From Abditibacteriota bacterium (lineage in GTDB: Bacteria; Armatimonadota; UBA5829): a stretch of DNA of 64,000 nucleotides. Of this stretch, positions 8,917 to 37,058 are shown piece by piece. The DNA lies in NCBI GenBank assembly GCA_017445025.1, contig JAFSVJ010000009.1, forward strand, positions 1,536 through 65,535, given 5' to 3'. Under the pieces are notes generated by a model, which saw only the letters and a program-made list of their open reading frames with translations, did no database searches and was not told where the DNA came from. The translations under genes and the position numbers were made by a program. The stretch's first letter is position 1. The number at the start of each line of letters is the position of its first letter.

Positions 8917-9663
8917 TTATCTCTTGATAGGCCACATGTTAATGGGAGTTGTTGTTGCTTCAGGCTTCATAGCCTTTGCGTGACCGTCAGCGAATGTCCA
9001 GTTGTCCATACCGTTGTGGTATCCCTTCATAGCTTTACAAGCGGGGTCGTTAAGCTCACTTCTTTGGTTACCAAAGGCAAGTAAGTATGTTTGGTAAGGA
9101 TTAATTGGTGGGAAGCAGGTGTCACCGTAAGCTATGTAGTTAAGAGTTCCCCAACCGTATCTCCATGTTTCAGCAACAAGAATTGTTTCGGCAGGATTGG
9201 CAATTTCTGCGTTAGTAATAACAGCTTCGGAAGTATCTCCGTCAAGGATGAATTGACACATACCGGACTCTCTGAAAATGTATACGTTACCACAATAAGA
9301 GTTTCTTCCGATGTGACCGTTCTGTTGCATCCAAGCAGCGAAACCATCGTCAGAGGGACATTTGAAAATTGTGGAGTGGCTCCATGTTCCTGCTTGACCC
9401 TTGTTACCTGCGTAAGGTAAAACCTTAATGGCCCAACCGTTGTATCCGCTACCGTTGGATGGGGGATAGGTTTCGTCATAGTCGTCTACGTAGAGCATAG
9501 TTGCCGTTCCGATTTGTTTCATATTGGACAGACAGTTAGCAGCTCTTGCTTTCTCTCTTGCTTGGGCAAATACGGGGAATAGAATTGCAGCAAGAATGGC
9601 AATTATAGCAATAACTACCAACAATTCTATAAGGGTAAATCCTTTTTTGAACATTGTGTTCAC
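8917..9663 (-). CDS. DUF1559-type protein with prepilin-type N-terminal cleavage/methylation domain (H-X9-DG family)
   Basis: N-terminus [29 protein letters not shown] is a type IV pilin-like signal. The C-terminal FADGHAKAM block matches the DUF1559 H-X9-DG signature. This family is typical of Planctomycetes, Verrucomicrobia and Lentisphaerae. Confidence 0.8.
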
Positions 9664-10992: not shown

Positions 10993-12471
10993 TTACTCTT
11001 TACTCAAAGGTTCAGCTTTTAAATATGTCTTTATACCATTCAAAATACCCTTTCCGAGAATTTCCTTAAACTCAGGAGTTTGAACATATTCTCTGTCAAT
11101 ATAGTGATTTATAAATCCTGTTTCAATTAAAGTGCAAGGCACTCTCTCCTTGCTTGCGGAACGCAAAACTCCATAACCTGATTTATACATAACCGTATCG
11201 CTTTTAATTCCCTTATCGGGAATAGTTATAAAAGGAACAATGCAGTCGTGTATGCAAGTGGCAATATATTTTGACCCGGTTAGATTCTTATGATAATAAT
11301 CTTCAAAACCTGTAGCTCTGTCCTCCCCTTCTGTGGAATTACAATGGACACTTATAAAAAAGTCACAATTGTTGTCTATTGACATTTGACCTCTCTCCGC
11401 TAAGGAAGGATTGCCCTCTAAATCTCTGGTCAAAATAACTTTTATTCCCTCTTCTTCTAAGATGGATTTCACAACCAAACACATATCATAATTTACATAT
11501 TTTTCATAAATATTATGACGACCGACACCAAATTCTTTACCACCATGGCCCGGATCCAAAACTATGGATATTTCATTTAATGATTTCCCCTCTGTTTTAA
11601 GAGGGCTTATTCTGATAATCATATCATTGTTTTCCGTCTTACTTGTGGCATCCATAATTTTATCAAGAAGACAGGTGATTTCTCTTTCCCCCACATCAAG
11701 TTTCAAATGTCCCGCAGATTTTTTACCCATAATTCTGCTTAAAACTTTTCCGTTTTTTAATTTTATTTTCAAAAGCCCTGTGCAAACATTAACATCTATA
11801 TCCGCCTCGGAAAGAGCACCTTCTTTTAAGACTATTACATAGTCATTGCCGGATTTACGAAAGTCCACTGCTTCTATATTTGAAAATGTTGTAATACCAC
11901 TTTCCGTCAGATTAATTTCCGCATTGGAAGTATTTAGATAAACAGGAGTTGTTTTATTGATTTTATTAAATGTGTTAAAATAAAAGATCAATTTATTATT
12001 CTCATTTTTAACTTCTATATTTTTCACACCGGGAGGCAAATTTATTGGAGCATAGGAATAAGTTATATCACTACCTTTAACACTGACAACAAAAGCTCTT
12101 TTGGAGCTTTGGCATATTATATCTGTTTTAAACAGGCATCCCAAAAAAAATGTATCACCTTTTATAAATGAATGAGTTATGGCATTATTAATTTCAAAAT
12201 ATTTTCCCTTTATTTTATAATGGGTACCCATTCTGCCTATTACTTGTTCAAGATCGTAAAGACCTGTATCTCCGTAAATATCTTCTTTGAAAATCTCTCT
12301 GTCCCCTACTTGGGCATAATCAAAAAAATCTTCCGATACGAGATATTTATTATCTCGAATAACTCTTTCATTGACTTTCAGATAATTTCCGTCTACACTT
12401 ATAAAATAATCGGAAGCAAATGAAACTATTGGCAAAAAAAACAAAATTATAACATAAAATATATTTTTCAT
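10993..12471 (-). CDS. N-acetylmuramoyl-L-alanine amidase (Amidase_3, AmiC/CwlC-like) with N-terminal signal peptide
   Basis: LDPGHGGKEFGV...FISVHCNS is the Amidase_3 zinc-binding signature. Start chosen at MKNIF (12471), which has a GAGGG RBS. The 5-codon upstream extension overlaps that RBS. The 4-bp gap to the lacI-family gene suggests co-transcription. Confidence 0.8.
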   Translation of the reverse strand: MKNIFYVIILFFLPIVSFASDYFISVDGNYLKVNERVIRDNKYLVSEDFFDYAQVGDREIFKEDIYGDTGLYDLEQVIGRMGTHYKIKGKYFEINNAITHSFIKGDTFFLGCLFKTDIICQSSKRAFVVSVKGSDITYSYAPINLPPGVKNIEVKNENNKLIFYFNTFNKINKTTPVYLNTSNAEINLTESGITTFSNIEAVDFRKSGNDYVIVLKEGALSEADIDVNVCTGLLKIKLKNGKVLSRIMGKKSAGHLKLDVGEREITCLLDKIMDATSKTENNDMIIRISPLKTEGKSLNEISIVLDPGHGGKEFGVGRHNIYEKYVNYDMCLVVKSILEEEGIKVILTRDLEGNPSLAERGQMSIDNNCDFFISVHCNSTEGEDRATGFEDYYHKNLTGSKYIATCIHDCIVPFITIPDKGIKSDTVMYKSGYGVLRSASKERVPCTLIETGFINHYIDREYVQTPEFKEILGKGILNGIKTYLKAEPLSKE

Positions 12472-12614
12472 AATCTTTACCCTCAATATTAATTATATCA
12501 CATTTTACCGATAATCTCAATTTATTTAATTATAAACCTAATTATAATTATTAAAAATTTTTTAAAATTTTACTTTAAATAAAATTATTATTTATATAAA
12601 TATGGTTTTAGGGC

Positions 12615-12643
12615 TTGACAAACTCGTAAAAATATGATATAAT
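12615..12643 (+). promoter_or_regulatory. Consensus sigma70 promoter TTGACA-17-TATAAT
   Basis: ttgaca (12615-12620), an exactly 17-nt spacer, then tataat (12638-12643). Confidence 0.7.
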
Positions 12644-12730
12644 ATAATTGTCATGAAAATAAATTTTTCAAAATTTAATAGAGATTATTATTGCTGGTAT
12701 TCTGTTTAAAGATTACCGCAATATTTTCAT

Positions 12731-12794
12731 ATCGCGGTGAAAACCGCGGTTTTTTTATAAAAAAAGACCGCATCAGTAGAATGCGGTCTTTTTT
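12731..12794 (+). terminator. Two tandem intrinsic-terminator hairpins in the 5' leader of the porin-like gene (candidate attenuator or small RNA 3' end)
   Basis: Hairpin 1: cgcggt-gaaa-accgcg plus T8 (12731-12755). Hairpin 2: gaccgcat-cagtaga-atgcggtc plus T8 (12764-12794). They lie between the consensus promoter and the RBS/ATG at 12838. Confidence 0.55.
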
Positions 12795-12837
12795 TTGAGA
12801 ATTTTGAAAGGTTAAAAACAAAACTAAGGAGACTTAC

Positions 12838-14115
12838 ATGAAGAAACTTCTATTCACCCTTCTTGTGCTTATAATGGGATTATCTCTCTTTGCACAAGAC
12901 GCAGAGGAAAAACAAGAACCCTTTAAATTTTGGGGTTCTGTTGACGTTGACGTTATCAAAGGTGATGAATTGTATTTCAGAAACCCGGATGAATTTAAAT
13001 TAATGGGAAACCTTGAATTAAACGGAAACTACAAAATTAACGATCAGTGGGAACTTAACGGAACAGTTGTTGTAGGTAACTACCTAAAATCATTGGAATC
13101 TACTCCTCTTGAAAACATTCACCACATTTACTCCCAACTCTACTACTTAAACGCAAAGTATAAAAATGAAAACTGGGGAGATGTAAGCATAGGTTCCTTC
13201 GGCTTTAAAGTAAATCCATATGTTTTACAAAGAGTAACCAATGATGATTACTTCTCAAACCCACTCACACAAAGCGGAAACTACCCCCTCTTAGGTGTTA
13301 ATTGGAAAAACACCATAAACAATTTTTCTTACAACCTTTGGGGTGGAAGATTGGGCAAAAACGGTTTTGACGATGCCAACTTATACCTATATTCTTACAA
13401 TTTAGGTCAATTAAAAGACACTTATGGTGTAGATTTGGGTTATGACTTTGGTCCTGTTCAAATTAACGCTTTATGGTCTCACTTTACCGGTGATGCTGAT
13501 GAACTCGTTGACCCGGGTGCCGATAAGACAAATGTCTACGGTGGTGGTGTTAAAGTTCCCATCAAAAGTATAGATTCCATGGTTGCCGGTAACTACTACG
13601 CAAGAAAAGCCGATAACATTGATAACACAAAGATGTGGGATCTCTACTTTACAAAGAATTTCGGTAAATTCTACACCAAATTGGGATATATTTATGTTGG
13701 TGAACACTACAACGCTCCCGGTGACTGGATGATGCACACAAGAAACGGTAGCGGTATCAAGGGATGGCAACTTTACTGGAACGGACCTATTGCGGGCAAA
13801 TTCTCCACATACGGTTATTTTCACAAAGGTAAAGACTTTAACGAACTCACTGAAGGTCCTCTCTTTAAATCAAAGTTAGGTTTGATTTATACTTTTGATG
13901 AAAACAATAATATTAACTTTAACTGGACATACAAACACAGAAAAGCAGACGCAGTTGACAGTCATGTAATAGATAACTACTGGTTTATTGGTTTCACTCA
14001 CATATTTGACGAACACATGAAAATCAGTTTAAACTATGAACTTAACAGATTCAACTATGATATAGACGACGGAACAAAAGACATGTTCTACACTCAATTC
14101 ACTTATTCATTCTAA
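12838..14115 (+). CDS. Putative outer-membrane beta-barrel (porin-like) protein
   Basis: Signal peptide MKKLLFTLLVLIMGLSLFA. The composition is rich in Gly, Tyr and Asn with alternating residues. The C-terminus ...QFTYSF ends in an aromatic residue (Phe), which is typical of outer-membrane beta-barrels. RBS aaggag. Confidence 0.55.
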   Translation: MKKLLFTLLVLIMGLSLFAQDAEEKQEPFKFWGSVDVDVIKGDELYFRNPDEFKLMGNLELNGNYKINDQWELNGTVVVGNYLKSLESTPLENIHHIYSQLYYLNAKYKNENWGDVSIGSFGFKVNPYVLQRVTNDDYFSNPLTQSGNYPLLGVNWKNTINNFSYNLWGGRLGKNGFDDANLYLYSYNLGQLKDTYGVDLGYDFGPVQINALWSHFTGDADELVDPGADKTNVYGGGVKVPIKSIDSMVAGNYYARKADNIDNTKMWDLYFTKNFGKFYTKLGYIYVGEHYNAPGDWMMHTRNGSGIKGWQLYWNGPIAGKFSTYGYFHKGKDFNELTEGPLFKSKLGLIYTFDENNNINFNWTYKHRKADAVDSHVIDNYWFIGFTHIFDEHMKISLNYELNRFNYDIDDGTKDMFYTQFTYSF

Positions 14116-14118
14116 AAG

Positions 14119-14140
14119 AAGCTCGGGAAACCGAGCTTTT
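14119..14140 (+). terminator. Rho-independent terminator aagctcgg-gaaa-ccgagctt+tttt; left copy of a 22-bp perfect direct repeat (candidate attL-side island boundary)
   Basis: An 8-bp stem with a GNRA loop, 3 bp after the porin stop. The identical 22-mer recurs at 34824-34845. Confidence 0.6.
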
Positions 14141-14220: not shown

Positions 14221-15248
14221 TTATATAAATTGCAATTTATCTATTGCTGCAATTAAATCCATTTTTGGTAATCGAGTATATACATCAAGGGTTACATCTT
14301 TATACTTATGACCCATGATCTTTTTAATTGCTATAATATCTACTTTATTTTTAAGCATGTAATATGAAAAACTTTGCCTACAATTTTTAGGAACATGATC
14401 AAAAGAATGTTTTGAAAAGATTTGACGCAATTTTGATTCTGAGAAATTAAATACACCTTGTTTAACTTCTTCTGTTATTTTAAGAATATCTTTATGTATT
14501 GGAACTACTCTGTTAATTCCGGCTTCTGTTTTACTACCGGTTATTATATAACGTTCGTTTAAGTGAAATTCACTTATTTTTGATATTTCATTAAATCTTA
14601 TTCCCGTATATAAATAAAAAAGTTGTAATTTACAGGACAATTCATCTTTGTTTTTCCAAAGTTCTTGTATCTCACCAACTGTATAATTATTCTCCTCTTT
14701 TTTCGCTTGTGAAGATGAAGAAATTGCAATTGACGTTGCGTAATTTTTGGTAGCCCAGTCTTTATTTACAGCATATTCTGATAATTTCACCAACATTGTT
14801 CTAACTTTGCTTTGCATGGGGTATCCATATTTTAAAGTCTTAAATAAATTTACATAATCTTGGTGTTTAATATCACTCATAAGTTTGTTATGTAAAACAG
14901 CACAATCTTTAAAAGCTATTTTAGTATCCTTCTTCCAACTTTTGCTTTTATTTCCAAAAATGGTTATATAGTTAAACCATTGTTTGAATGCAACCTCAAA
15001 TGTAATTAGGACTAGATCATCAGGGTGTTCCTTTTTACAATTTTTTAAGGCTTCTTTTGCTTCTTCTTCTGTTTGGTAGTTTCCTAATGTTTTTTGAATT
15101 CTTTTAATTGTGCCATCTTCAGAAATATTATATGTTTGCGGTAATACTACTCTCCATTGCTTTTTTAATTCCGGACGGTTTATCTTGAAAATAGATTCTT
15201 CGCCTTTTTGTCTTCTTTTATATTCTATTTTTTTCTAAGTCTACCCAT
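14221..15248 (-). pseudogene. Tyrosine recombinase / phage-type integrase, interrupted by a frameshift in an A7 homopolymer (T7 on the plus strand at 15228-15234)
   Basis: The C-terminal catalytic region has TGIRFNEI (Arg) and IMGHKYKDVTLDVYTRL (His, Arg, Tyr). The open frame continues 107 codons upstream of the annotated Met with no ATG. The ATG at 15248 (MGRLRKK) is restored to frame by a +1 A in the A7 tract. Confidence 0.75.
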
Positions 15249-15701: not shown

Positions 15702-15998
15702 TTAAGTCGTTATCATTAAGTTTGCCTTCATAGAGTTATAATCAGTAATCTCTGAAATATCAAATTCCATATAAGAATCAAGTTTGATAAAGGTTTCTTT
15801 TGGAAATGGTGGATAATACTGTTCTATAAGATAGTTACTTTCAAAATATAATCTGCTTTCCTTTCCTCTTAATGAAGAAGCATTTAATACTCCTATTTTT
15901 GAACCTGTCACTTTAACAATTAGATAAAATCTGTTATATTCCGGAAAAGTCCCATCCTTAAACCTAAGTTTTGTGAATATTGCCTGTCCTACTTCCAT
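15702..15998 (-). CDS. Small hypothetical protein; candidate toxin partner of the upstream Panacea-domain protein
   Basis: A 98-aa ORF whose start overlaps the stop of the Panacea gene by 1 nt (ATGA). No motif recognised. Confidence 0.45.
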   Translation of the reverse strand: MEVGQAIFTKLRFKDGTFPEYNRFYLIVKVTGSKIGVLNASSLRGKESRLYFESNYLIEQYYPPFPKETFIKLDSYMEFDISEITDYNSMKANLMITT

Positions 15999-16642
15999 TA
16001 GTATGCTTGCACTTCTCCGTCATCAAGGAATAAAGACATTGCCACTTCATCTGTAACTAAAGAAAGATCATATAGCTTGTCATAATCTTTGTCTGTTAAT
16101 GTGATTTCTTTTGGGTTGTAGTAAAATCTCACACCGTTAATGACTTCATAAACCTCTTCTTTATCCCTATTTTCGTAAGTAGAAATAACCTTATAGGTTT
16201 TATCTATTTCCTTTTTTATTAATTCTGTAGGGATAACAGCATCACCGGGATTGGTTTTGGATGATTTTTTATATGTGTCATTCCAAAAATTAAAGGTGTG
16301 ATTAAGTTCGGAAAGTTCCTTTGCAGAATAATGACTGAAAATTTCATTGGTAAGTTCTAATACTTTATCGGTTTCTTTAGAGAAGTTTGGCTTAAAGGCA
16401 AGACTGTCTTTCAAAAAAGTATTAAAATTATCTTTAAATTTGAGACGAACATCTCCTATTACACAACCTTGTTTAAAGGCAAATATATTGTCTTTGTATA
16501 AAGGAGAGTTGTATAGTGATAGGTTTATCAGATATGCAAACAGAAGCAGTTTCTGCAATTTCATATTACTGTCAAAGTTAGACTGTTGAATATCAAGATT
16601 GGTTTTAACAAAGAATTTAGCTAAATCGTAAACATTTTCCAT
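15998..16642 (-). CDS. Panacea-domain (DUF4065, SocA/GepA-like) putative antitoxin
   Basis: ...MKLQKLLLFAYLINLSL...AFKQGCVIGDV matches the KLQKLLYfa...AWeyGPV core of DUF4065. Start set at MENVYD (16642), which has a strong AAGGAGG RBS, rather than the ORF-track start at 16666. Confidence 0.55.
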   Translation of the reverse strand: MENVYDLAKFFVKTNLDIQQSNFDSNMKLQKLLLFAYLINLSLYNSPLYKDNIFAFKQGCVIGDVRLKFKDNFNTFLKDSLAFKPNFSKETDKVLELTNEIFSHYSAKELSELNHTFNFWNDTYKKSSKTNPGDAVIPTELIKKEIDKTYKVISTYENRDKEEVYEVINGVRFYYNPKEITLTDKDYDKLYDLSLVTDEVAMSLFLDDGEVQAY

Positions 16643-17012
16643 AATAAACCTCCTTTTACTAACCATACTATTATACTATATTTTATTTATTTTGTCAAAT
16701 ATTAAACCAGCAATAATATATACTTATATTTTGAACCCAAAGTTCCCAAAGTAAGAATTAATATGTGTTTTTTCTGATTTTTGAGATTTAGGGTCAAACT
16801 GTCAAAATTAATGAACAATTTTTAAAAACTATAAAAAAACTGTTTTTTTAGTGGATTTTTGTAGTAAAAATATAGTATAATATATTGAGAGATATTTAAA
16901 ACAGCTTTCTTTTACGCCTATTATTATTAATTTGAAAAAACACTTAAAATATTATATAATAATTATGTGTATCTAATTATAAATAATAGTATAATTTAGT
17001 TATAAAGTAAAA

Positions 17013-18887
17013 ATGACAGACGAGAAGCCTTTTGAGTTAAAATTGAATAATGACAAATATGTGACAATAGATGAACTAACAAAAATAGATTTAGCCGGAA
17101 CTAAGCCTATTGATTTTGTTATAGGTAATAATCCACCGGTTTCTGTTAAGTTTTGGCGTTTATTATTAAGTAAAACCGTAGATGAACTCATAAAACTATA
17201 TCCACATAAAGATATATTGCACTTTTCCTCTGCCAATACAAGAATGCTATTATTTTCTTATAACAAAGAGGATTTACACAGAGGTGAACTATTATCTAAT
17301 GGTTTGTTTTTGGAAACCTGTTTTAGCTCTAATAAAGTAGTTGAATTAATCAAAGCTTTTTTTGATTTCTTCGGGTATAAAGGTGAGTATTTATTAAATT
17401 ACAGACGGGAGAGAACTCCTTCTATACAAAGAAGAAATCAAAAATTAAATATTGTTGAAACAAGTAATGAACAAAATTTTAATAAAGAAAATATAAATAA
17501 TTCATTTGAATTATATGATAAAGAATTAATAGATATAGCTAATGTTATATTAGAAGAAAAGTTTTCTAATGCTTTTAGATTAAATTCAAATATTGCTAAA
17601 AATAAGTTTAGGAGGGCTTATTTTGATTTATTGGGTAAAGAGTTAATAGAAGAGTTTAATATAGATGATTTAATTAAGACTTTAGGAGTTGTTTTTGAAG
17701 ACAAAGTATATATAATATCATCAAAAGCAAAAGATATTTTAAGTGAATTAATTAATGAAGCAATAATAAATAATAATAATATAATTTATTATAAAGATTT
17801 TTATGATAAGAATAGTTCAATTCTTTCTTCTTTAAACATTTTCAATTATGAAATATTAAAAAAAGTAATTCAGTCATATTTTGAAAATCTATTTATTGAT
17901 ACTCATTTTTTTAAACCATTGGAAGATAATAATTTAGTTAATGATTTAGTTGAATGCTTTAAAGGGAAAGACATGTTGTCTATATATGAAATAAAGAATA
18001 AACTATTATATACTGATATTAATCACATTAAAAGAATGTTACAATTAGATAAGAATTTTGTATTTGCCAAAAGATATAATTATATGTATGTAGAAAACTT
18101 ATCTATTTCTACAGATGATGTTGAAGAAAGTAAGAAAATAATAGAAAAATCCTTTACTGACAAAGGAACAGCCAGTTTATCCGATATAGTTGTTAATAAT
18201 AGTATAAATTTAAACTATAATGCAACTGAAAATGCTTTACGAGAGGCAATATTCATTAAATGTTTATCTAATATGTGTGACAGAAACAGATCCATATTAT
18301 ATCCCAAGGGAAAAGATAAAATATCCGGTGCTTTATTAATGGAGGAATATTGTTTAAGTCATAATAAAGTCACTGTAGAAGAATTAGAAGAATATGAAAA
18401 CAAAATGACTGGTCATACTTATTTTTGGTTGATAAAAGCTATGAATAATATGATAAGAGTGGATCAAAAAACATTTGTTAGTTTTGATTTAATTGAATTC
18501 GATATTGAAAAAACTAATGAAGCTATTGGAAGATTTATATATGATAAGATAGTTCCCTTTAAGAAAATAGATAGTTTTATTGGGTTTCCTGAAGTGGAAG
18601 GATATATTTGGAATAAATATTTATTAGCTTCTTTTTGTTTACATGTAAGTAATAAATATAATTCTTGGCATAAATTTGCTAAGAATGATATTTTAGGTGG
18701 AATATATCCTAATACAATGGAGATAGATAGTTATAATGACTTTTTATATTATGTGGTATTAGAAAACAATATACCATTAACTAATGAATCTATTAATCTT
18801 TTTTTAAAAGATAATGGTTATATAAAGAAAAACATAAATACAGATTGGATAATATCTAAAATTAACGAATATAAGGAAGTAAATTAG
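17013..18887 (+). CDS. Uncharacterised 624-aa protein, first gene of the defence operon; translationally coupled to the downstream BrxP-like gene
   Basis: No recognisable motif and very N/K/I-rich. Its TAG stop overlaps the GTG start of the next gene (tagtg at 18885-18889). Confidence 0.5.
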   Translation: MTDEKPFELKLNNDKYVTIDELTKIDLAGTKPIDFVIGNNPPVSVKFWRLLLSKTVDELIKLYPHKDILHFSSANTRMLLFSYNKEDLHRGELLSNGLFLETCFSSNKVVELIKAFFDFFGYKGEYLLNYRRERTPSIQRRNQKLNIVETSNEQNFNKENINNSFELYDKELIDIANVILEEKFSNAFRLNSNIAKNKFRRAYFDLLGKELIEEFNIDDLIKTLGVVFEDKVYIISSKAKDILSELINEAIINNNNIIYYKDFYDKNSSILSSLNIFNYEILKKVIQSYFENLFIDTHFFKPLEDNNLVNDLVECFKGKDMLSIYEIKNKLLYTDINHIKRMLQLDKNFVFAKRYNYMYVENLSISTDDVEESKKIIEKSFTDKGTASLSDIVVNNSINLNYNATENALREAIFIKCLSNMCDRNRSILYPKGKDKISGALLMEEYCLSHNKVTVEELEEYENKMTGHTYFWLIKAMNNMIRVDQKTFVSFDLIEFDIEKTNEAIGRFIYDKIVPFKKIDSFIGFPEVEGYIWNKYLLASFCLHVSNKYNSWHKFAKNDILGGIYPNTMEIDSYNDFLYYVVLENNIPLTNESINLFLKDNGYIKKNINTDWIISKINEYKEVN

Positions 18888-21238
18888 TGGCACGGTATAT
18901 ATATGATTCTGAAACAGGTGGTATTCTGCTTCAGTATTTTGATGGAATAACATCTAACGAACCAAGACCTGTATATGCAACAGAGTTAAATATATTGGGA
19001 GTTGATGAATATTGGGATTATGAAAATCAAGATGATATCCCTTATATGTGGGCTGAGGCTAATCACTATTATTATAAAGGTATAAAAATATTTGACACTA
19101 AAGGTGGTAACCTTTATGAAAAGCCCAAAATTGAAATAATATATCAAAAAACTGAAAAAGAGAAGTTAACAGAAAATCCTGTTTTACCTTTTCATACTAA
19201 ATTAGATAAAATAAAAATCAAAGAAATGTGTGAGAAGAATAAGGAAGAATTAAATATATTAGAGCAATTAACTTGTAAAAAAATATATAATGAGTATTGC
19301 AAATATAAAGATAAACTTGATTGTTTTCATGTAGCTTTTAGTGGTGGTAAAGATAGTATTGTATTATTGGAACTTGTTAAAAAAGCTCTTCCTAAAAGCA
19401 GTTTTATTGTTTTATTTGGTGATACTCAAATGGAATTTCCGGATACTTATAAGATTATAGATATAGTAGAAGAGGGATGTAAAAAAGAGGGCATTGAATT
19501 TTATAGGGCCAAATCTCATCTAAAACCGGAAGAGAGTTGGAGATTATTTGGGCCTCCTTCAAGAGCATTAAGGTGGTGTTGTTCAGTTCATAAATCTGCT
19601 CCTCAGACTTTAAAATTAAGAGAAATATTAGGTAAAAAAGATTATATTGGAATGGATTTTGTAGGTGTTAGAGCTTTTGAAAGTTCAACCAGGGCTACCT
19701 ATGAAGAAGAGAATTTTGGAAAAAAACAAAAAGGCCAATATTCTTTTAATGCAATACTAAATTGGACTTCCGCCGATGTGTGGTTGTATATATATTCTAA
19801 TAATTTACCTATAAATGAAGCTTATAAAAAAGGCAATTCTCGTGCAGGATGTTTGTTTTGCCCAATGGGTGGTGGAAAAGGAGATTTTTTTCAGTATTAT
19901 TCATATTCTAAAGAAATGAATCCGTTAATATCAATAGTAAAAGACTTGTATATAAATGATACTGATAGTCAAGAAAAAATAAATTCTTATGTTTTTTCTG
20001 GTGGATGGAATGCTAGAAAAAATGGTAGGGATTTAACTATTTCTAAAAATAATTATAAAGAAGAAAAAATAGGACAAGACTTAATTATAACAATAAAGAA
20101 TCCTAGATCTGATTGGAGAGAATGGATTAAAATCTTAAGCAATTATAACTTAAATTATGATATTGTTAGTAATGATAATACTTTAAAAATAATTATTAAT
20201 GAAAATTCATTAGATAAAAATTTAGTTAAATATAGTAATAATTCTAAAGATTTATCTTTAAAAAGAGTATTTAAACAAGTATTTAAGAAAGCATCAAGTT
20301 GTGTGGGTTGTAAAGTATGTGAGGCTAATTGTCGTTATGGGCATATATCATTTAATGATGGTCTTAAAATTAATGGTTGTATACAATGTTATGAATGTCA
20401 AGATTTAGTAAATGGTTGTTTACTGTATAATTCTTTAATAATACCAACAGGAGATAAAAGAAAATTGAGTATTAATTCTTTTGCTAATCACGCACCTAAG
20501 CCAGAATGGATAAAAGATTTTGTCCAAAATTATAAAAATAATGTTGATTTTTGGTCTAATAATACATTAGGTCCTCAACAAATACCTAGATTTAAAAAGT
20601 TTGTTAAAAGTTGTGGCTTTTTAGATAATTCAAATAAACCAACAAAATTATTAAACTTATTATCAAATAAAAGATATAATTCAATTGATATTTGGGGTAT
20701 TGCTTATGCGAATTTTGCTTATAATACGCAAAGTCGATGGTATATAGAAAATATGGAAATAGATACCATTTACACTCGTGATAAAATCTCAGATATGCTT
20801 GTTGAAGAAGGATTAAGTAGAGATGATTCTACTTCAGTTATTAATGCATTTAAACGTTTTTGTGATATACCTTTTGGTGTTTATCTTAAATTTGGCAATG
20901 TTAAATTAAGTAATAAGACTATAAAGACATTGTCAAGAACAAAGACTTCTTTAGATAATAATAATAAGTTAGTTCTTTTATATTCTTTATATAAATATGC
21001 TGAAGAATGTGGTGATTATTATCAATTTAGCTTATCTACTTTAATGGATATGACTATAAAGTCTAAGGGTATAAGTCCTGTGAAAATATTTGGTTTTAGT
21101 CGTGATGAAATGGAAGTTATGCTTAGTGGATTGTCAAGCAAATACACAGATTTTATTGATTACACGCCTACTCATGGTTTAGAAAAGATAACCTTAATGG
21201 ATTATCATACTTCACAGGACGTTTTAGATTTATTTTAG
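18887..21238 (+). CDS. brxP: PAPS-reductase-domain protein, BrxP-like (DndC-like ATP pyrophosphatase fold plus Cys-rich C-terminal region)
   Basis: FHVAFSGGKDSIVLLEL is the PP-loop SGGKDS motif of the PAPS reductase/DndC family. Downstream cysteine clusters (CLFCPMGGGK; CVGCKVCEANC...CIQCYEC) follow. GTG start. Confidence 0.65.
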   Translation: MARYIYDSETGGILLQYFDGITSNEPRPVYATELNILGVDEYWDYENQDDIPYMWAEANHYYYKGIKIFDTKGGNLYEKPKIEIIYQKTEKEKLTENPVLPFHTKLDKIKIKEMCEKNKEELNILEQLTCKKIYNEYCKYKDKLDCFHVAFSGGKDSIVLLELVKKALPKSSFIVLFGDTQMEFPDTYKIIDIVEEGCKKEGIEFYRAKSHLKPEESWRLFGPPSRALRWCCSVHKSAPQTLKLREILGKKDYIGMDFVGVRAFESSTRATYEEENFGKKQKGQYSFNAILNWTSADVWLYIYSNNLPINEAYKKGNSRAGCLFCPMGGGKGDFFQYYSYSKEMNPLISIVKDLYINDTDSQEKINSYVFSGGWNARKNGRDLTISKNNYKEEKIGQDLIITIKNPRSDWREWIKILSNYNLNYDIVSNDNTLKIIINENSLDKNLVKYSNNSKDLSLKRVFKQVFKKASSCVGCKVCEANCRYGHISFNDGLKINGCIQCYECQDLVNGCLLYNSLIIPTGDKRKLSINSFANHAPKPEWIKDFVQNYKNNVDFWSNNTLGPQQIPRFKKFVKSCGFLDNSNKPTKLLNLLSNKRYNSIDIWGIAYANFAYNTQSRWYIENMEIDTIYTRDKISDMLVEEGLSRDDSTSVINAFKRFCDIPFGVYLKFGNVKLSNKTIKTLSRTKTSLDNNNKLVLLYSLYKYAEECGDYYQFSLSTLMDMTIKSKGISPVKIFGFSRDEMEVMLSGLSSKYTDFIDYTPTHGLEKITLMDYHTSQDVLDLF

Positions 21239-27629: not shown

Positions 27630-29093
27630 ATGATAGATAAGTTAAGAAAATATTTTGATGAAATGGTAGTATATAAAGATTTAAAGAATAGTAATTTCTT
27701 TTCTGCTTTGAGTTTACCTTCATTTACTCGTGATTGGCTATTAAAGCGATTTGAAAACAAAGAAGGTCAATTTGATATTGATAATTTAGCTGCATTTGTT
27801 AAGAAGAATATCCCAAAAAAAAATGATTGGACTGCAATTGAAAGTAGAATAGTTAAAGATTATGAAAGAGTAAAAATATTAGCTAAAATTTCTATTGATA
27901 TAGATATTAAAACAGGAGAAGTTTCTTTTTCTTTACCTGAATTTGGTTTGTCTTCTAAAAATACTATTATTGAAGATGATGTATATGATGAATTTAAAGA
28001 AGATTTAGTTAGCGGACATGAAGTTTGGGGTATGCTTGAATTAGGATATAGACAACCAAATGATACTGTTAAGCCTAAAATTCCTGGAAAAATAAAATTA
28101 ATTAAATTTAAAAACTTTTGTCCCTACAATATAAATGTAGATTATTATAAAAATGTTAGGTCTAAATTTACTATTGATGAATGGATAAATGTTCTTTTAG
28201 GAGCTATTGATTATAATGCAGATGGTTACAAAGATAATGAAGAAAAACTATCTATGCTTACAAGACTCTTACCATTCTGTGAAAAAAGATTAAATCTTAT
28301 AGAATTAGCTCCTAAAGGAACAGGTAAATCATATGTCTATGGTAGAATAAGTAGATTTGGTTGGCTTTCCAGTGGTGGTGTTATGAGCAGAGCTAAAATG
28401 TTCTATGACATTTCAAAAAGAGCAGAAGGTTTAGTTAGTGGAAATGATTTCATTACTCTTGATGAAGTGCAAACAATTTCTTTCACAGATATAGATGAAA
28501 TGAGAGCCGCATTAAAAGGTTATTTAGAGCAAGGTGTTTTTACTGTAGGTAATTATGAAGGATCAGCATCTTCGGGTGTCATTTTATGTGGTAATATATC
28601 CAAGAAAATAATGGATCAAGATGGAACAACTGATATGTTTAAAGAACTTCCAGATGTTTTCCACGAATCTGCTTTAATAGAACGTTTTCACGGGATAATT
28701 AGAGGTTGGAATATACCAAGAATGAATGATGATTTAAAAATATGTGGTTGGGCATTAAATTCTGAATACTTTTGTTCTATATTACACGAATTAAGAGAAG
28801 ATACAACATATCGAGTTGTTGTAGATAAGTTAATAGAGGTTCCTGAAGGGGCAGATACAAGAGATACTGAAGCTATTAAAAGAATTGTAACTGCTTACTT
28901 AAAACTTTTATTTCCGAATGTTAGACAGCCCGAAGATATTTCTCCTAGAGAATTTAAACAGTATTGTTTAAGACGTGCTAGAAATATGAGAGCCTTGATT
29001 AAATCTCAATTAGGAATTATTGATGAAGAATATAGAGGAAAAGATATTCCTAATTTAGTTGTTAATCCTCAATACTTAAATGATGATTTATAA
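27630..29093 (+). CDS. brxL: AAA-type ATPase, BrxL-like (Lon-related ATPase region; no protease Ser-Lys motif seen)
   Basis: 487 aa. Walker A LELAPKGTGKSYVY and Walker B FITLDEVQ. Position after the PglZ-like gene matches type 1 and type 4 BREX order. Confidence 0.45.
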   Translation: MIDKLRKYFDEMVVYKDLKNSNFFSALSLPSFTRDWLLKRFENKEGQFDIDNLAAFVKKNIPKKNDWTAIESRIVKDYERVKILAKISIDIDIKTGEVSFSLPEFGLSSKNTIIEDDVYDEFKEDLVSGHEVWGMLELGYRQPNDTVKPKIPGKIKLIKFKNFCPYNINVDYYKNVRSKFTIDEWINVLLGAIDYNADGYKDNEEKLSMLTRLLPFCEKRLNLIELAPKGTGKSYVYGRISRFGWLSSGGVMSRAKMFYDISKRAEGLVSGNDFITLDEVQTISFTDIDEMRAALKGYLEQGVFTVGNYEGSASSGVILCGNISKKIMDQDGTTDMFKELPDVFHESALIERFHGIIRGWNIPRMNDDLKICGWALNSEYFCSILHELREDTTYRVVVDKLIEVPEGADTRDTEAIKRIVTAYLKLLFPNVRQPEDISPREFKQYCLRRARNMRALIKSQLGIIDEEYRGKDIPNLVVNPQYLNDDL

Positions 29094-29322: not shown

Positions 29323-30945
29323 ATGATAGAAAAGATAAGAATTATTAATTTTAAAAAATTTAGAGACATTACTATAAATTTAAATGAAAATATTAACATT
29401 ATTGTTGGAAATAATGAAGAAGGTAAATCTACTATTTTGGAAGCTTTAAATTTAGCTCTTACAGGATTTTATCGAGGAAAGCCAATTAATAATGAATTAT
29501 CACAGTATTTGTTTAATAATGATGTTGTTATTGAATATCTTAAGTCATTACAAACAGAAAAAATAACAGATCTGCCATGTATTAAGATAGAAATATATTT
29601 TTCTACTGGAACAGCCCCTATTTTTGAAGGAAATAAAAATATAGATAATGAAGATAATGAAGGATTTACTTTTCATATAGGTTTTAATGAAGATTACAGA
29701 GAAGAATATGATTTTTATATTAGAAATAACCAAATAGACAATTTACCTATTGAATATTATGAAGTTTGGTGGGAAACTTTTGCTCGTGACAAAATCACTA
29801 CAAAAAAACTTCCTATTAAATCTTTTATGATTGATTCTTCAAATTATAAATATACAAATAGTTCCGATATTTATATATCAAGAATAGTTAATAACATTTT
29901 AGATAAAAAGGATATTCTATCTATTGCTCAATCACATAGACGTTTAAAATATAAATTCAGTGAAGAAGATTCCATAAAGAATATAAATTCTAAAATATCC
30001 AAAGATTTATTCATAAATGATGATATAATTAACTTAGGTGTAGAAGTAGATACTAAGAACGCTTGGCAAAATAGTTTGGTTGTTCAAGTTAATGATATTC
30101 CTTTTGAAAATATAGGAAAAGGAACGCAATGTATATTTAAGACAAAAATGTCATTACTAAAAAACAAAGATAATCAAAATTCTGTAATTTTAATTGAAGA
30201 GCCTGAAAATCATTTATCATATTCTAAATTAAATGAATTTATAAAAATTATTAAAGATATTAACATTGGCAAACAAATCATAATGACAACTCATAGTAGT
30301 TTTGTAGCCAATAAATTAGGATTAAACAATTTAATATTAATAAATGACAAAAATGTATTAAGAATAAGTAACGTTAAATCATTTGATTTCTTTAAGAAAA
30401 TTCCAGGATATGATACATTAAGATTTTTACTATCAAAGAGAGTAATTTTAGTAGAAGGGCCATCAGATGAATTAGTCGTTCAAAAAGCTTATATGATGCA
30501 TAATAATGGTAGAATACCTATTATGGATGGAATAGATGTTATTTCCGTAGGAACTGCTTTTTTAAGATATTTAGAATTAGCTATCAGACTAAATATTAAA
30601 GTGAGTGTTATGATTGATAATGACGGAAATATTAAAGCAATAGAAGAAAAATATAGTGATTATAAAGATAATAAGAATATAACTATATGCTATGATGAAG
30701 AAGTTAATGATAAAAAAGAATCATTAGGTGAAAGGTTTAATTATAATACATTAGAGCCTAATTTGTTGAAGGTTAATAGTATAGAAGTTTTTAATAAAAT
30801 ATTAAATATGTCCTTTATTACAGAAAAAGACTTATTACAATATATGAAGAATAATAAAACTGATGTTGCTTTAAAAATATTTGAAACAAAAGAAAACATT
30901 AATTTTCCTAATTATGTATTAAAGGCTATTAATAATGAAGAGTAA
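29323..30945 (+). CDS. OLD-family ATP-dependent nuclease (N-terminal ABC-type ATPase plus C-terminal Toprim), GajA-like
   Basis: Walker A IIVGNNEEGKSTILEAL. Walker B-like VILIEEPENHL. C-terminal Toprim ILVEGPSDELVVQ. Confidence 0.65.
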   Translation: MIEKIRIINFKKFRDITINLNENINIIVGNNEEGKSTILEALNLALTGFYRGKPINNELSQYLFNNDVVIEYLKSLQTEKITDLPCIKIEIYFSTGTAPIFEGNKNIDNEDNEGFTFHIGFNEDYREEYDFYIRNNQIDNLPIEYYEVWWETFARDKITTKKLPIKSFMIDSSNYKYTNSSDIYISRIVNNILDKKDILSIAQSHRRLKYKFSEEDSIKNINSKISKDLFINDDIINLGVEVDTKNAWQNSLVVQVNDIPFENIGKGTQCIFKTKMSLLKNKDNQNSVILIEEPENHLSYSKLNEFIKIIKDINIGKQIIMTTHSSFVANKLGLNNLILINDKNVLRISNVKSFDFFKKIPGYDTLRFLLSKRVILVEGPSDELVVQKAYMMHNNGRIPIMDGIDVISVGTAFLRYLELAIRLNIKVSVMIDNDGNIKAIEEKYSDYKDNKNITICYDEEVNDKKESLGERFNYNTLEPNLLKVNSIEVFNKILNMSFITEKDLLQYMKNNKTDVALKIFETKENINFPNYVLKAINNEE

Positions 30946-32032
30946 GCTAATAATGGCATGTGCCGGTTCCGGAAAAACTACTTATTTGATAGAACGAGCT
31001 TTAAAAATAAAGGACAAAAGCATATTAATTACTACATATACTAATTCTAATGAACAAGAGATAAAGAATAAATTTATAGATAGAATAGGTTATATCCCAA
31101 AAAATATAACTATCCAAACTTGGTTTTCATTCTTATTACAGCATTGGGTTAGACCTTATCAAAGTGTAATATATGATTGTGACATCAAAGGAATAGATAT
31201 TTCAGATAAAAAATCTACTAAATATGTAACAGAAAACAATGCTAAAGAATATTATTTTAATAGTAAAAATGAAATATATCGAGATAATCTCTCTAAATTT
31301 GCTTTTAAAGTAAATGAAAAAACTGAAGGAAAACTTATAGCCAGATTAGAAAAAATATATCAATATATTTTTATTGATGAAATTCAAGATTTGGCAGGAT
31401 ATGATTTAGATTTAATAAATGAAATAGTTAATTCTAGTATTTGGTTAATAATGGTTGGTGATAGAAGACAAACTGTTTATATTACACATTATGAAAAACG
31501 CAATGAAAAATATAGAGGAAAAATTGATGAATATGTGATAGATAAACTAACAAATAAAGTTTACATGGATGTAAAATCCTTATCTAATAGTTATAGATGT
31601 AATCAAAAAATATGCGATTTTGCTAATGATGTTTTTAAAGATTTGCAACCTATGAAATCGTCAAACAAACAAAAAACAGAACATGATGGTGTTTTTTTAG
31701 TTAGACCTTGTGATATAAATGATTATTTGATTAAGTTTAGTCCTGTTCAGCTACGATATAGCAAATCTATAAAGGTAAATATAAATTATAAAGCTTATAA
31801 TTTTGGTGAATCAAAAGGTTTAACTTTTGATAGAGTATTAATATATCTAACTAAAAATCAAACTGATTGGTTAAAAAATCATACTATAAAGTTAAAAGAG
31901 CCGGAAAAATTATATGTTGCTATTACAAGAGCTAAATATAGTGTTGCAATTGTATTTGATGAATTAGATAAATATCAACCAAAACATACAGAAGTGTATC
32001 CTTATAAAAGAGATTTATTTACACTTGATTAG
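30935..32032 (+). CDS. Compact UvrD/PcrA-like SF1 helicase, GajB-like
   Basis: Motif I ACAGSGKTT, Ia TYTNSNEQEI, II FIDEIQD, III MVGDRRQT, V GESKGLTFDRV, VI VAITRAKYSV. Overlaps the OLD-like gene by 11 nt. Confidence 0.6.
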   Translation: MKSKLIMACAGSGKTTYLIERALKIKDKSILITTYTNSNEQEIKNKFIDRIGYIPKNITIQTWFSFLLQHWVRPYQSVIYDCDIKGIDISDKKSTKYVTENNAKEYYFNSKNEIYRDNLSKFAFKVNEKTEGKLIARLEKIYQYIFIDEIQDLAGYDLDLINEIVNSSIWLIMVGDRRQTVYITHYEKRNEKYRGKIDEYVIDKLTNKVYMDVKSLSNSYRCNQKICDFANDVFKDLQPMKSSNKQKTEHDGVFLVRPCDINDYLIKFSPVQLRYSKSIKVNINYKAYNFGESKGLTFDRVLIYLTKNQTDWLKNHTIKLKEPEKLYVAITRAKYSVAIVFDELDKYQPKHTEVYPYKRDLFTLD

Positions 32033-32192
32033 TCTTTTACTAATTATTAATTTATAAAAGTGTATTTTTAATTGAGTACATTATGGCAAAAACGAATGAA
32101 TAAATATGTATATTTTTAAACCTTTAAATTAAATGGGTTAAAGATTTTATTCCAAAATGTATAATAATAATATTAAATGGAGAAATTTTAAG

Positions 32193-34823: not shown

Positions 34824-34845
34824 AAGCTCGGGAAACCGAGCTTTT
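34824..34845 (+). terminator. Second copy of the aagctcgggaaaccgagctttt hairpin terminator (candidate attR-side island boundary)
   Basis: A 22/22 identity with 14119-14140 in the same orientation. Confidence 0.6.
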
Positions 34846-36966: not shown

Positions 36967-37058
36967 GGAAGAGTGGCTGAGTGGACGAAAGCGGCTGCCT
37001 GCTAAGCAGTTGTACCTAAATACTGGTACCTCGGGTTCGAATCCCGACTCTTCCACCA
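36967..37058 (+). tRNA. tRNA-Ser (anticodon GCU), long variable arm, encoded CCA
   Basis: Acceptor stem ggaagag/ctcttcc, T-arm tcggg-ttcgaat-cccga. Anticodon loop cuGCUaa. A long variable arm fits class II tRNA-Ser. Ends ...cca followed by a T-run. Confidence 0.8.

Follow-up and report, generated by a model that had tools for sequence, protein, structure and literature searches.

What do two strong transcription terminators do between a perfect consensus promoter and the gene that it faces? The question is raised by a gene for a porin-like outer-membrane protein (12838–14115, plus strand, 425 amino acids) of an uncultured gut Abditibacteriota bacterium (GCA_017445025.1, contig JAFSVJ010000009.1). 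The window, that is, the whole stretch of DNA analyzed, comprises 64,000 nucleotides (nt) of this contig (positions 1,536–65,535, forward strand), and all coordinates below follow its own numbering. An earlier note on this DNA had offered an attenuator, a riboswitch or a small RNA (sRNA) as explanations. We favor the first and hypothesize that the 190-nt leader is a cis-acting transcription attenuator, conditionally read through into the porin gene, which was installed in this lineage between an ancestral strong porin promoter and the ribosome-binding site (RBS). Judged from sequence, we consider this reading possible and place it somewhat short of an even chance.

Promoter, terminators and the porin gene

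The promoter (P1, 12615–12643, plus strand) consists of TTGACA (12615–12620), a 17-nt spacer and a TG-extended TATAAT (12635–12643). A sigma-70 consensus scan scored it as a 12/12 match, confirming the consensus promoter described in the earlier note. The consensus is in use in this genome, because the window contains 10 sites with at most one mismatch versus 1.46 expected, a number reached in none of 100 shuffles; only two sites are perfect. Based on spacing only, transcription from P1 is predicted to start at G12650, 7 nt past the −10 hexamer.

Two intrinsic terminators follow. T1 (12731–12756, plus strand), identified by scanning and folding, is composed of segment 3 (12731–12738), a GAAA loop, segment 4 (12743–12750) and a U7 tract (12750–12756) whose first U closes the stem; the eight pairs, five of them G-C and one G·U, yield −12.5 kcal/mol. 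T2 (12759–12796, plus strand) comprises an A7 tract (12759–12765), segment 5 (GACCGCAU, 12766–12773), a loop (12774–12780), segment 6 (AUGCGGUC, 12781–12788) and a U8 tract (12789–12796). Its 15-nt arms (12759–12773/12781–12795) are perfectly complementary (−18.6 kcal/mol), and since A7 precedes and U8 trails the core, T2 would terminate transcription in both directions. Both terminators, including the GAAA loop of T1, had been recognized before; T2 begins at 12759 instead of 12764 if its A/U extension is counted. Perfect-stem hairpins with a U tail are scarce (~6–7 per strand in 64 kb by a simple scan), and the remaining ones in the window lie directly 3′ of open reading frames (ORFs), as read from the ORF map. 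Two such hairpins no more than 65 nt apart in a 5′ leader are not background. Transcripts from P1 are predicted to be ~105 nt long when ending at T1 (12650 to ~12756) and ~145 nt when ending at T2.

Downstream of the terminators, the Shine-Dalgarno (SD) sequence AAGGAG (12826–12831) and the ATG start codon of the porin gene (12838–12840) were found as previously described. The product, which NCBI names a hypothetical protein of an Abditibacteriota metagenome-assembled genome, has no Pfam match itself, and 3 of the 6 members of its family match PF13609 (Porin_4, best E 4.6e-08). The label porin-like is reasonable because these family matches coincide with a signal-peptide-like N-terminus and a C-terminal ...FTYSF. 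The family is tiny, with 6 clusters among 5.8 billion database proteins. Upstream, and divergent from the porin gene, an N-acetylmuramoyl-L-alanine amidase gene (Amidase_3, 10993–12471) occupies the minus strand, as had been stated, with a near-consensus promoter of its own (12520–12492, minus strand); T1 and T2 are therefore not its terminators.

The consensus scan found no good promoter between T2 and the porin ORF. To this extent the earlier claim that no other promoter precedes the ORF stands, and it needs to be amended for P2 (TTTATA-17-TAGAAT, 12754–12782, plus strand), a weak 9/12 match inside T2 that is the sole rival start point for the porin mRNA. Matches of this quality occur at chance frequency in this AT-rich DNA (18 versus 14.5 ± 4.5 expected per 3 kb). 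Among the related contigs introduced below, the −35 element of P2 changes to TTTATT in L007 and to TTTACA with a 16-nt spacer in L099 (10/12 there), whereas both P1 hexamers are unchanged across the window, L001, L007 and L099. Attenuation is favored because P1 is the sole strong and invariant promoter.

The same elements could form a stand-alone sRNA gene, an explanation that we rate as somewhat unlikely. P1 would drive a ~105-nt trans-acting RNA consisting of an AU-rich 5′ part, a hairpin termed A (see below), an AU-rich linker and T1 with its U7 tail; T2 would be a fail-safe, and the porin would be expressed by leaky read-through or from P2. The short sRNA put forward earlier is equally compatible with the sequence in the form of an RNA of this length ending at T1, and such an RNA is compatible with attenuation too. 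A perfect promoter, a predicted RNA of ~100 nt (within a promoter-to-terminator range of 50–300 nt), a strong terminator backed by a second one, and the rise of P2 to 10/12 in L099 all agree with an sRNA gene; that the P2 −35 element is different in every strain argues against it.

Mutually exclusive hairpins around an 18-codon reading frame

A third hairpin, unmentioned in the earlier note, precedes T1. Hairpin A (12689–12723, plus strand) was predicted by RNAfold and joins segment 1 (12689–12703) to segment 2 (12710–12723) through 13 pairs (−13.9 kcal/mol). It overlaps an 18-codon ORF (MKINFSKFNRDYYCWYSV plus stop; 12653–12709, plus strand), read from the sequence as a candidate leader peptide. 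The codons for Tyr12, Tyr13, Cys14, Trp15 and Tyr16 (12686–12700) are located within segment 1, and the stop codon (12707–12709) sits in the loop of hairpin A. A cluster of regulatory codons in segment 1 combined with a stop codon between segments 1 and 2 corresponds to the layout of trp leaders.

The hairpins have related arms. ACCGC/GCGGU cores are common to the 3′ arm of hairpin A (UUACCGCAA), the arms of T1 (CGCGGU/ACCGCG) and the arms of T2 (GACCGCAU/AUGCGGUC), and the ACCGC motif is absent from every other terminator found in the window. Because of these shared cores, segment 2 can pair with segment 3, and segment 4 together with the U-tract can pair with the A-tract and segment 5. Hairpin 2:3 (12713–12740, plus strand), the candidate antiterminator of T1, combines UUACCGC (12713–12719) with GCGGUGA (12734–12740) and contains an inner 4-bp helix (12721–12724/12729–12732); it folds with −10.7 kcal/mol and is mutually exclusive with T1. 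Hairpin 4:5 (12746–12771, plus strand), the candidate antiterminator of T2, joins GCGGUUUUUUU (12746–12756) to AAAAAGACCGC (12761–12771) through 11 pairs (−13.2 kcal/mol) and is incompatible with both T1 and T2. Folding thus recovered, twice, the kind of anti-terminator pairing that the earlier note had suggested looking for. We compared both hairpins with permuted controls (n = 3000) in which hairpin A, T1 and T2 were retained and base pairs were permuted and randomly flipped within each stem. The real stability was equaled in 0.4% of controls for 2:3, in 0.7% for 4:5, and in 0/3000 for both together. The alternative complementarity is non-random, and a stand-alone sRNA gene leaves it unexplained.

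We propose the following mechanism. By default, the nascent RNA would fold into A (1:2), T1 (3:4) and T2 (5:6), so that most transcripts would end at T1 as a ~105-nt RNA (~12756), with T2 catching leak-through. With segment 1 masked, segment 2 would pair with segment 3 and block T1; the freed segment 4 and U-tract would then pair with the A-tract and segment 5, blocking T2 and allowing RNA polymerase to read into the porin gene. The likeliest mask would be a ribosome translating the 18-codon ORF and stalled at Tyr-Tyr-Cys-Trp-Tyr, much as in attenuation of the trp/phe type. On reaching the stop codon, the ribosome would instead cover segment 2, favoring termination. Constrained folds of 12650–12757 are consistent with this scheme. 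Masking up to 12701–12707 (P-site at Tyr12–Cys14) gave a minimum free energy (MFE) structure devoid of T1 (−13.7 kcal/mol), and T1 was part of the MFE structure with masks extending to 12710–12719 (a ribosome sitting on the stop codon among them) and in the fold without a ribosome. Computationally, the choice between the mutually exclusive hairpins is set by ribosome position.

Homologous loci, strain copies and the origin of the terminator block

The DNA fetched around all porin homologues provided six homologous loci in which the same kind of strong promoter lies only ~20–30 nt ahead of the RBS, free of terminators. The syntenic orthologue (L002, 74% protein identity) aligns with the window at the divergent gene start and its TTGAGA-17-TGnTATAAT promoter. 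Its porin promoter, TTGAAT-17-TGgTATAAT, is separated from GGAG by ~23 nt, counted from the −10 hexamer, with no hairpin in between, and its −10 region (AAAATATGgTATAATAaATAAT) visibly resembles that of the window (AAAATATGaTATAATAtAATT). Four remoter loci (L003–L006, 37–43% identity) likewise possess TTGAAA/TTGAAT/TTGACA-17-TGnTATAAT promoters ~19–25 nt from −10 to RBS and no terminators. The window retains the same promoter type, plus ~150 extra nt with hairpin A, T1 and T2 before the RBS. By this comparison, P1 is the ancestral porin promoter, and the terminator block is lineage-specific and, by parsimony, an insertion in the lineage of the window. Attenuation is favored because the block lies inside the porin transcription unit, downstream of a promoter that carries no terminators in the homologues. 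The conditional read-through suggested in the earlier note thereby gains, at the level of sequence, a block within the porin unit, non-random alternative pairings and a trp-like ORF geometry. For a stand-alone sRNA gene the orthology of P1 to the porin promoter of all homologues is unfavorable, since the RNA would then have arisen by insertion into the porin unit and not as a gene in its own right.

Lineage specificity also bears on an explanation without any sensing, which we regard as unlikely: the ~150 nt of terminator-bearing DNA could be a constitutive dampener or evolutionary scar that lowers porin expression by a fixed fraction. Such a scar could stem from the 3′ end of some other locus, from what is left of a mobile element or from an attachment-site-like hairpin. 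In line with this explanation, neither the 74% orthologue nor any remoter homologue has the block, which is bracketed by a 10-nt inverted repeat (TTTCAAAATT/AATTTTGAAA, 12666–12675/12800–12809). Terminator hairpins do serve as integration sites here: the porin gene's own terminator (GCUCGG-GAAA-CCGAGC, 14117–14140, plus strand) doubles as the attachment-site repeat of the adjacent 20.7-kb island. The lack of covariation and of a known aptamer (see below) fits a dampener as well. Against it, the inverted repeat is short and does not extend, sequence reading revealed no target-site duplication around the block, and no other copy was found wherever we searched. Promoter mutations would be a simpler way to lower expression, yet P1 stays a perfect consensus, and the alternative pairings are statistically unexpected for a passive element. 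A miniature inverted-repeat transposable element or an element resembling a repetitive extragenic palindrome was considered and rejected, given an inverted repeat of just 10 nt, no target-site duplication and a single copy of the block. A mobile-element origin of the block is unsupported, though conceivable.

Four contigs (the window, L001, L007 and L099) supplied three distinct leader sequences; L001 and L007 were obtained from exact and cluster look-ups, and L099 from a search with the neighboring amidase. The leader of L001 is the same as that of the window, with two single-nucleotide differences ahead of the −10, one immediately 5′ of the −35 and the other in the spacer, and the leader of L007 carries a single change, A12759T. 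L099 is more divergent, and unevenly so: its divergence from the window amounts to 25% for the amidase coding sequence (CDS) and 26% for the upstream spacer, versus 10% for the promoter, 7.2% for the leader (14/194) and 4.6% for the initial 605 nt of the porin gene. For L007, divergence from the window is 0.7% over 12614–13640 and ~6.5% toward the 3′ end of the porin gene, in its final third. These comparisons indicate that promoter, leader and porin gene move together, and that the recombination break relative to L099 lies near ~12610. The mosaic divergence (breaks at ~12610 versus L099 and ~13640 versus L007) suggests that recombination shuffles promoter-leader-porin alleles between lineages. 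The leader thus shows recent regulatory evolution, being absent from the 74% orthologue yet carried with promoter and porin gene as one recombining unit. Differences in the porin gene are mainly synonymous: L007 has 23 synonymous and 14 non-synonymous ones, and L099 has 21 versus 5 differing codons over the initial 605 nt. By these counts the CDS is intact and under purifying selection, which implies that the gene is expressed even though two strong terminators precede it.

The 14 leader differences of L099 are 11 substitutions and 3 single-base insertions or deletions. Only one substitution, A12731G, falls among the 72 stem nucleotides (binomial P = 0.046), and it keeps pairing in both folds, from A-U to G·U in T1 and from U-A to U·G in the alternative helix; T1 has no other change in L099. 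The length changes remove 1 nt from the loop of hairpin A and one base each from the A-run and U-run of T2, whose loop contains one further change. Hairpin A has all 13 of its 13 pairs invariant in the three distinct sequences, and the core stem of T2 is also invariant. All helices keep their energies in L099, and 99–100% of cells pair in both folds across the three sequences; in hairpin 2:3 every cell pairs in all three. The strain-variable bases 12758 and 12759, between T1 and T2, are located in or beside the loop of hairpin 4:5. Stems preserved in a lineage with 7% leader divergence argue against a scar. Conserved hairpins with varying loops would also suit an sRNA gene. The 5′ 'seed' part, with 3 changes in 45 nt, is unfavorable to this reading, being conserved to no greater degree than the remainder. 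The 18-codon ORF, lacking an SD and changed only non-synonymously, would again fit an sRNA gene. In L099 this ORF keeps its start, stop and length.

Searches beyond these strains returned no further copy of the leader. BLAST within the window found no second copy, nor did a covariance model built from the three sequences in the window and related loci, and phage and plasmid collections contained nothing meaningful for the leader. The 18-mer of T1 had 87 matches in 185,579 representative genomes, all in unrelated taxa that share the hairpin only and 0 in Abditibacteriota. In the JGI metagenomes, a gapped leader pattern gave 0 matches and a locus search with the porin profile recovered only a duplicate of L005; scans of IMG/VR viral sequences found no leader copy, only two unrelated terminators. 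The missing copies count against a stand-alone sRNA gene, as does duplex prediction against the 41 translation-initiation regions of the window, which yielded no outlier and an unremarkable porin region, with pairing being non-specific in such AU-rich sequence.

Sensing, kinship with known leaders and the adjacent island

Several observations weigh against the attenuator reading. The two changes in the 18-codon ORF of L099 are both non-synonymous (I3M and D11N), with 0 synonymous ones. No SD precedes the ORF, whereas 25 of the 41 surveyed ORFs in the window show one. Its AUG lies only 3 nt past the predicted transcription start, so the 5′ end reads GUC-AUG, not a true leaderless AUG. Translation of the ORF would therefore need near-leaderless initiation, and the start-site survey of the 41 ORFs provided no evidence for leaderless starts in the window. 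The only other perfect 12/12 promoter of the window (16670–16698, minus strand), inside the island and upstream of a SocA/Panacea gene pair, has an ATG 3 nt past its −10, but the likely start is a downstream ATG behind AAAGGAGG; this example warns against taking an ATG near a promoter for a leaderless start. In equilibrium terms, the terminator fold (~−45 kcal/mol) greatly exceeds the alternative (~−24 kcal/mol) in stability; switching would accordingly have to be kinetic and depend on masking of segment 1, as in classical attenuators. The shared ACCGC/GCGGU cores could reflect one hairpin that was duplicated instead of selection for switching. With only three distinct sequences, no compensatory covariation was observed, and the comparison therefore demonstrates conservation of the hairpins and proves neither fold. 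Leader constraint within the species had also been considered from the near-identity of L007 (1 difference in 223 nt versus 7% upstream, Fisher P = 5e-4), and was rejected because the porin CDS shows just as little divergence over its first ~800 nt, a mosaic pattern. Finally, the regulated gene encodes a porin, not a typical target of amino-acid attenuation, and its function does not match the amino acids of the ORF; a link between the porin and aromatic amino-acid uptake is speculation.

The missing SD would pose no problem if a factor acted without translation of the ORF. A protein, small RNA or metabolite could bind hairpin A or hairpin 2:3 and decide between T1/T2 and read-through, following the logic of Bgl/Sac-type systems, PyrR, TRAP or riboswitches. 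This variant draws on the same structural evidence as the ribosome-dependent attenuator, and we judge it improbable. At gathering score, the Rfam scan proposed in the earlier note placed no family on the leader, and a tRNA was the sole match in the whole window. A permissive scan of 12450–12900 returned only sub-threshold scores: Thr_leader 39.4 and 35.1 bits (gathering score 55), SSRC34 32.8 (64), MicC 28.7 (90) and Trp_leader 14.9 (41), with alignments extending little beyond the terminator hairpins. No riboswitch reached its gathering score in the window (best PreQ1, 15.3 bits versus 39, downstream of T2), and T-box gave no match at E ≤ 10. The riboswitch considered earlier is also disfavored by the distance of only ~80 nt between the predicted start site and T1. 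Sigma-54, TRAP-triplet, ANTAR, RAT and ops motifs had no match in the leader, as checked by eye only; the same reading by eye found no repeated GAG/UAG triplets and no overlap of hairpin A with T1 of the kind seen in RAT-type antiterminators. Beside the locus, no gene for a putative RNA-binding regulator was identified; the neighbors of the porin gene are a LacI-type DNA binder and the amidase. Judged by these scans, the leader is no riboswitch, T-box or known sRNA and belongs to no catalogued RNA family.

The ribosome-dependent attenuator invites comparison with trpL, pheL, thrL and hisL. Shared features are a strong promoter, a promoter-proximal short ORF and an intrinsic terminator before the structural gene, as well as codons of one amino-acid class in segment 1, a stop codon between segments 1 and 2, and the exclusive hairpins 1:2, 2:3 and 3:4. 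In contrast to these leaders, the porin leader has an ORF that lacks an SD and is nearly leaderless, targets a porin instead of a biosynthetic operon, possesses a second terminator coupled via 4:5 and is restricted to one lineage. Neither sequence nor structure homology connects them, as the Thr_leader and Trp_leader scores were below gathering and driven by terminators.

Tandem terminators have a precedent in another class. The erm(K) leader reportedly measures 357 nt and includes an RBS for its leader peptide. Its signal is a ribosome stalled by a macrolide, and the gene under its control specifies a resistance methylase; the porin leader, by contrast, is 190 nt long and has an ORF with no RBS. 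As far as the account in PMC4335068 goes, which cites Kwak et al. 1991, erm(K) is a leader-peptide attenuator with two adjacent Rho-independent terminators, and the erm(K)/erm(D) class shares with the porin leader this placement of two terminators downstream of a short leader ORF. From its sequence, the porin leader would work like a trp/phe-type attenuator and like the tandem-terminator leader of erm(K), being homologous to neither. It belongs to neither family, as no family model matches, the ORF lacks an RBS and the regulated gene is of another type. Possibly new are the coupling of both terminators to a single sensor, the near-leaderless ORF and the porin as the regulated gene.

For the near-leaderless ORF, the closest parallel is found in mycobacteria, where leaderless polycysteine short ORFs act as amino-acid-sensing attenuators and stalled ribosomes remodel the downstream RNA (bioRxiv 10.1101/834739). 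Like the porin leader, these have a short ORF without an SD at the 5′ end of the transcript, with consecutive codons for an amino acid in short supply. They differ in acting on translation by unmasking an RBS, whereas the porin leader would act on intrinsic terminators. They also start exactly at a 5′-AUG in a phylum in which 1/4 of mRNAs are leaderless; the start site of the porin leader is predicted 3 nt before the AUG, and leaderless translation is undocumented for its phylum. A more specific version of the attenuator, unlikely as we see it, is a 'domino' in which the near-leaderless Tyr/Trp/Cys-rich ORF senses the supply of aromatic or cysteine aminoacyl-tRNA, and hairpin 2:3 followed by 4:5 disarms both terminators. 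The permeability of the outer membrane through a major porin would then be coupled to amino-acid starvation, T2 would suppress basal leak without limiting induced expression, and the terminated RNA may act in trans.

MicF and MicC are separate genes beside neighboring porin genes (ompC and ompN), not parts of porin leaders. What the porin leader has in common with these two and rnTrpL is a short terminated transcript, driven by a strong promoter beside a porin gene. It is set apart from MicC by its Rfam score (28.7 bits versus a gathering score of 90), and no target complementarity stands out for the leader RNA. In the case of rnTrpL, the liberated attenuator RNA regulates in trans (PMC6614838), a capacity of attenuator RNAs that lends some plausibility to an sRNA here; by analogy, a dual role as attenuator and attenuator-derived sRNA is possible.

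A literature term search on regulatory RNA of Abditibacteriota returned nothing relevant. If the leader is a working attenuator, it would, to our knowledge, be the first regulatory RNA element described for Abditibacteriota and a rare case of a porin under premature transcription termination. One switch disarming two terminators would combine low leak with high dynamic range, a compact natural design that should interest synthetic biologists. Should the leader be no more than an sRNA or a passive dampener, it would be an ordinary feature of modest interest.

The porin gene may not be the sole case of a long structured leader in the window. A DUF1559/prepilin-like gene (8917–9654, minus strand) has a near-consensus promoter (TTGACT-17-TGgTATAAT, 9814–9786) and an unusually long leader of ~115 nt, which opens with a small hairpin (AAGAGU/ACUCUU, 9776–9762) followed by AUAUUUUUU.

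The adjacent low-GC island (14119–34845, 20.7 kb; GC 0.264 versus 0.355 and 0.372 in its flanks) is flanked by a 22-nt direct repeat (AAGCTCGGGAAACCGAGCTTTT, 14119–14140 and 34824–34845) that corresponds to the terminator hairpin of the porin gene. The tRNA detected by Rfam (36967–37055, plus strand; 89 nt with a long variable arm, 60.1 bits) lies ~2 kb past the right end, and the island is therefore not inserted in it. Strains L007 and L008 have an empty island site. The island encodes a phage-integrase-family protein (14221–14880, minus strand), a SocA/Panacea protein (15998–16666, minus strand), a PAPS-reductase-domain protein (18887–21238), a BREX-like BrxL (27630–29093), an OLD-type ATPase/TOPRIM protein (29323–30945) that adjoins a UvrD-like helicase (30935–32032) to form a Gabija-like pair, and a Big_2 repeat protein (32157–34730).

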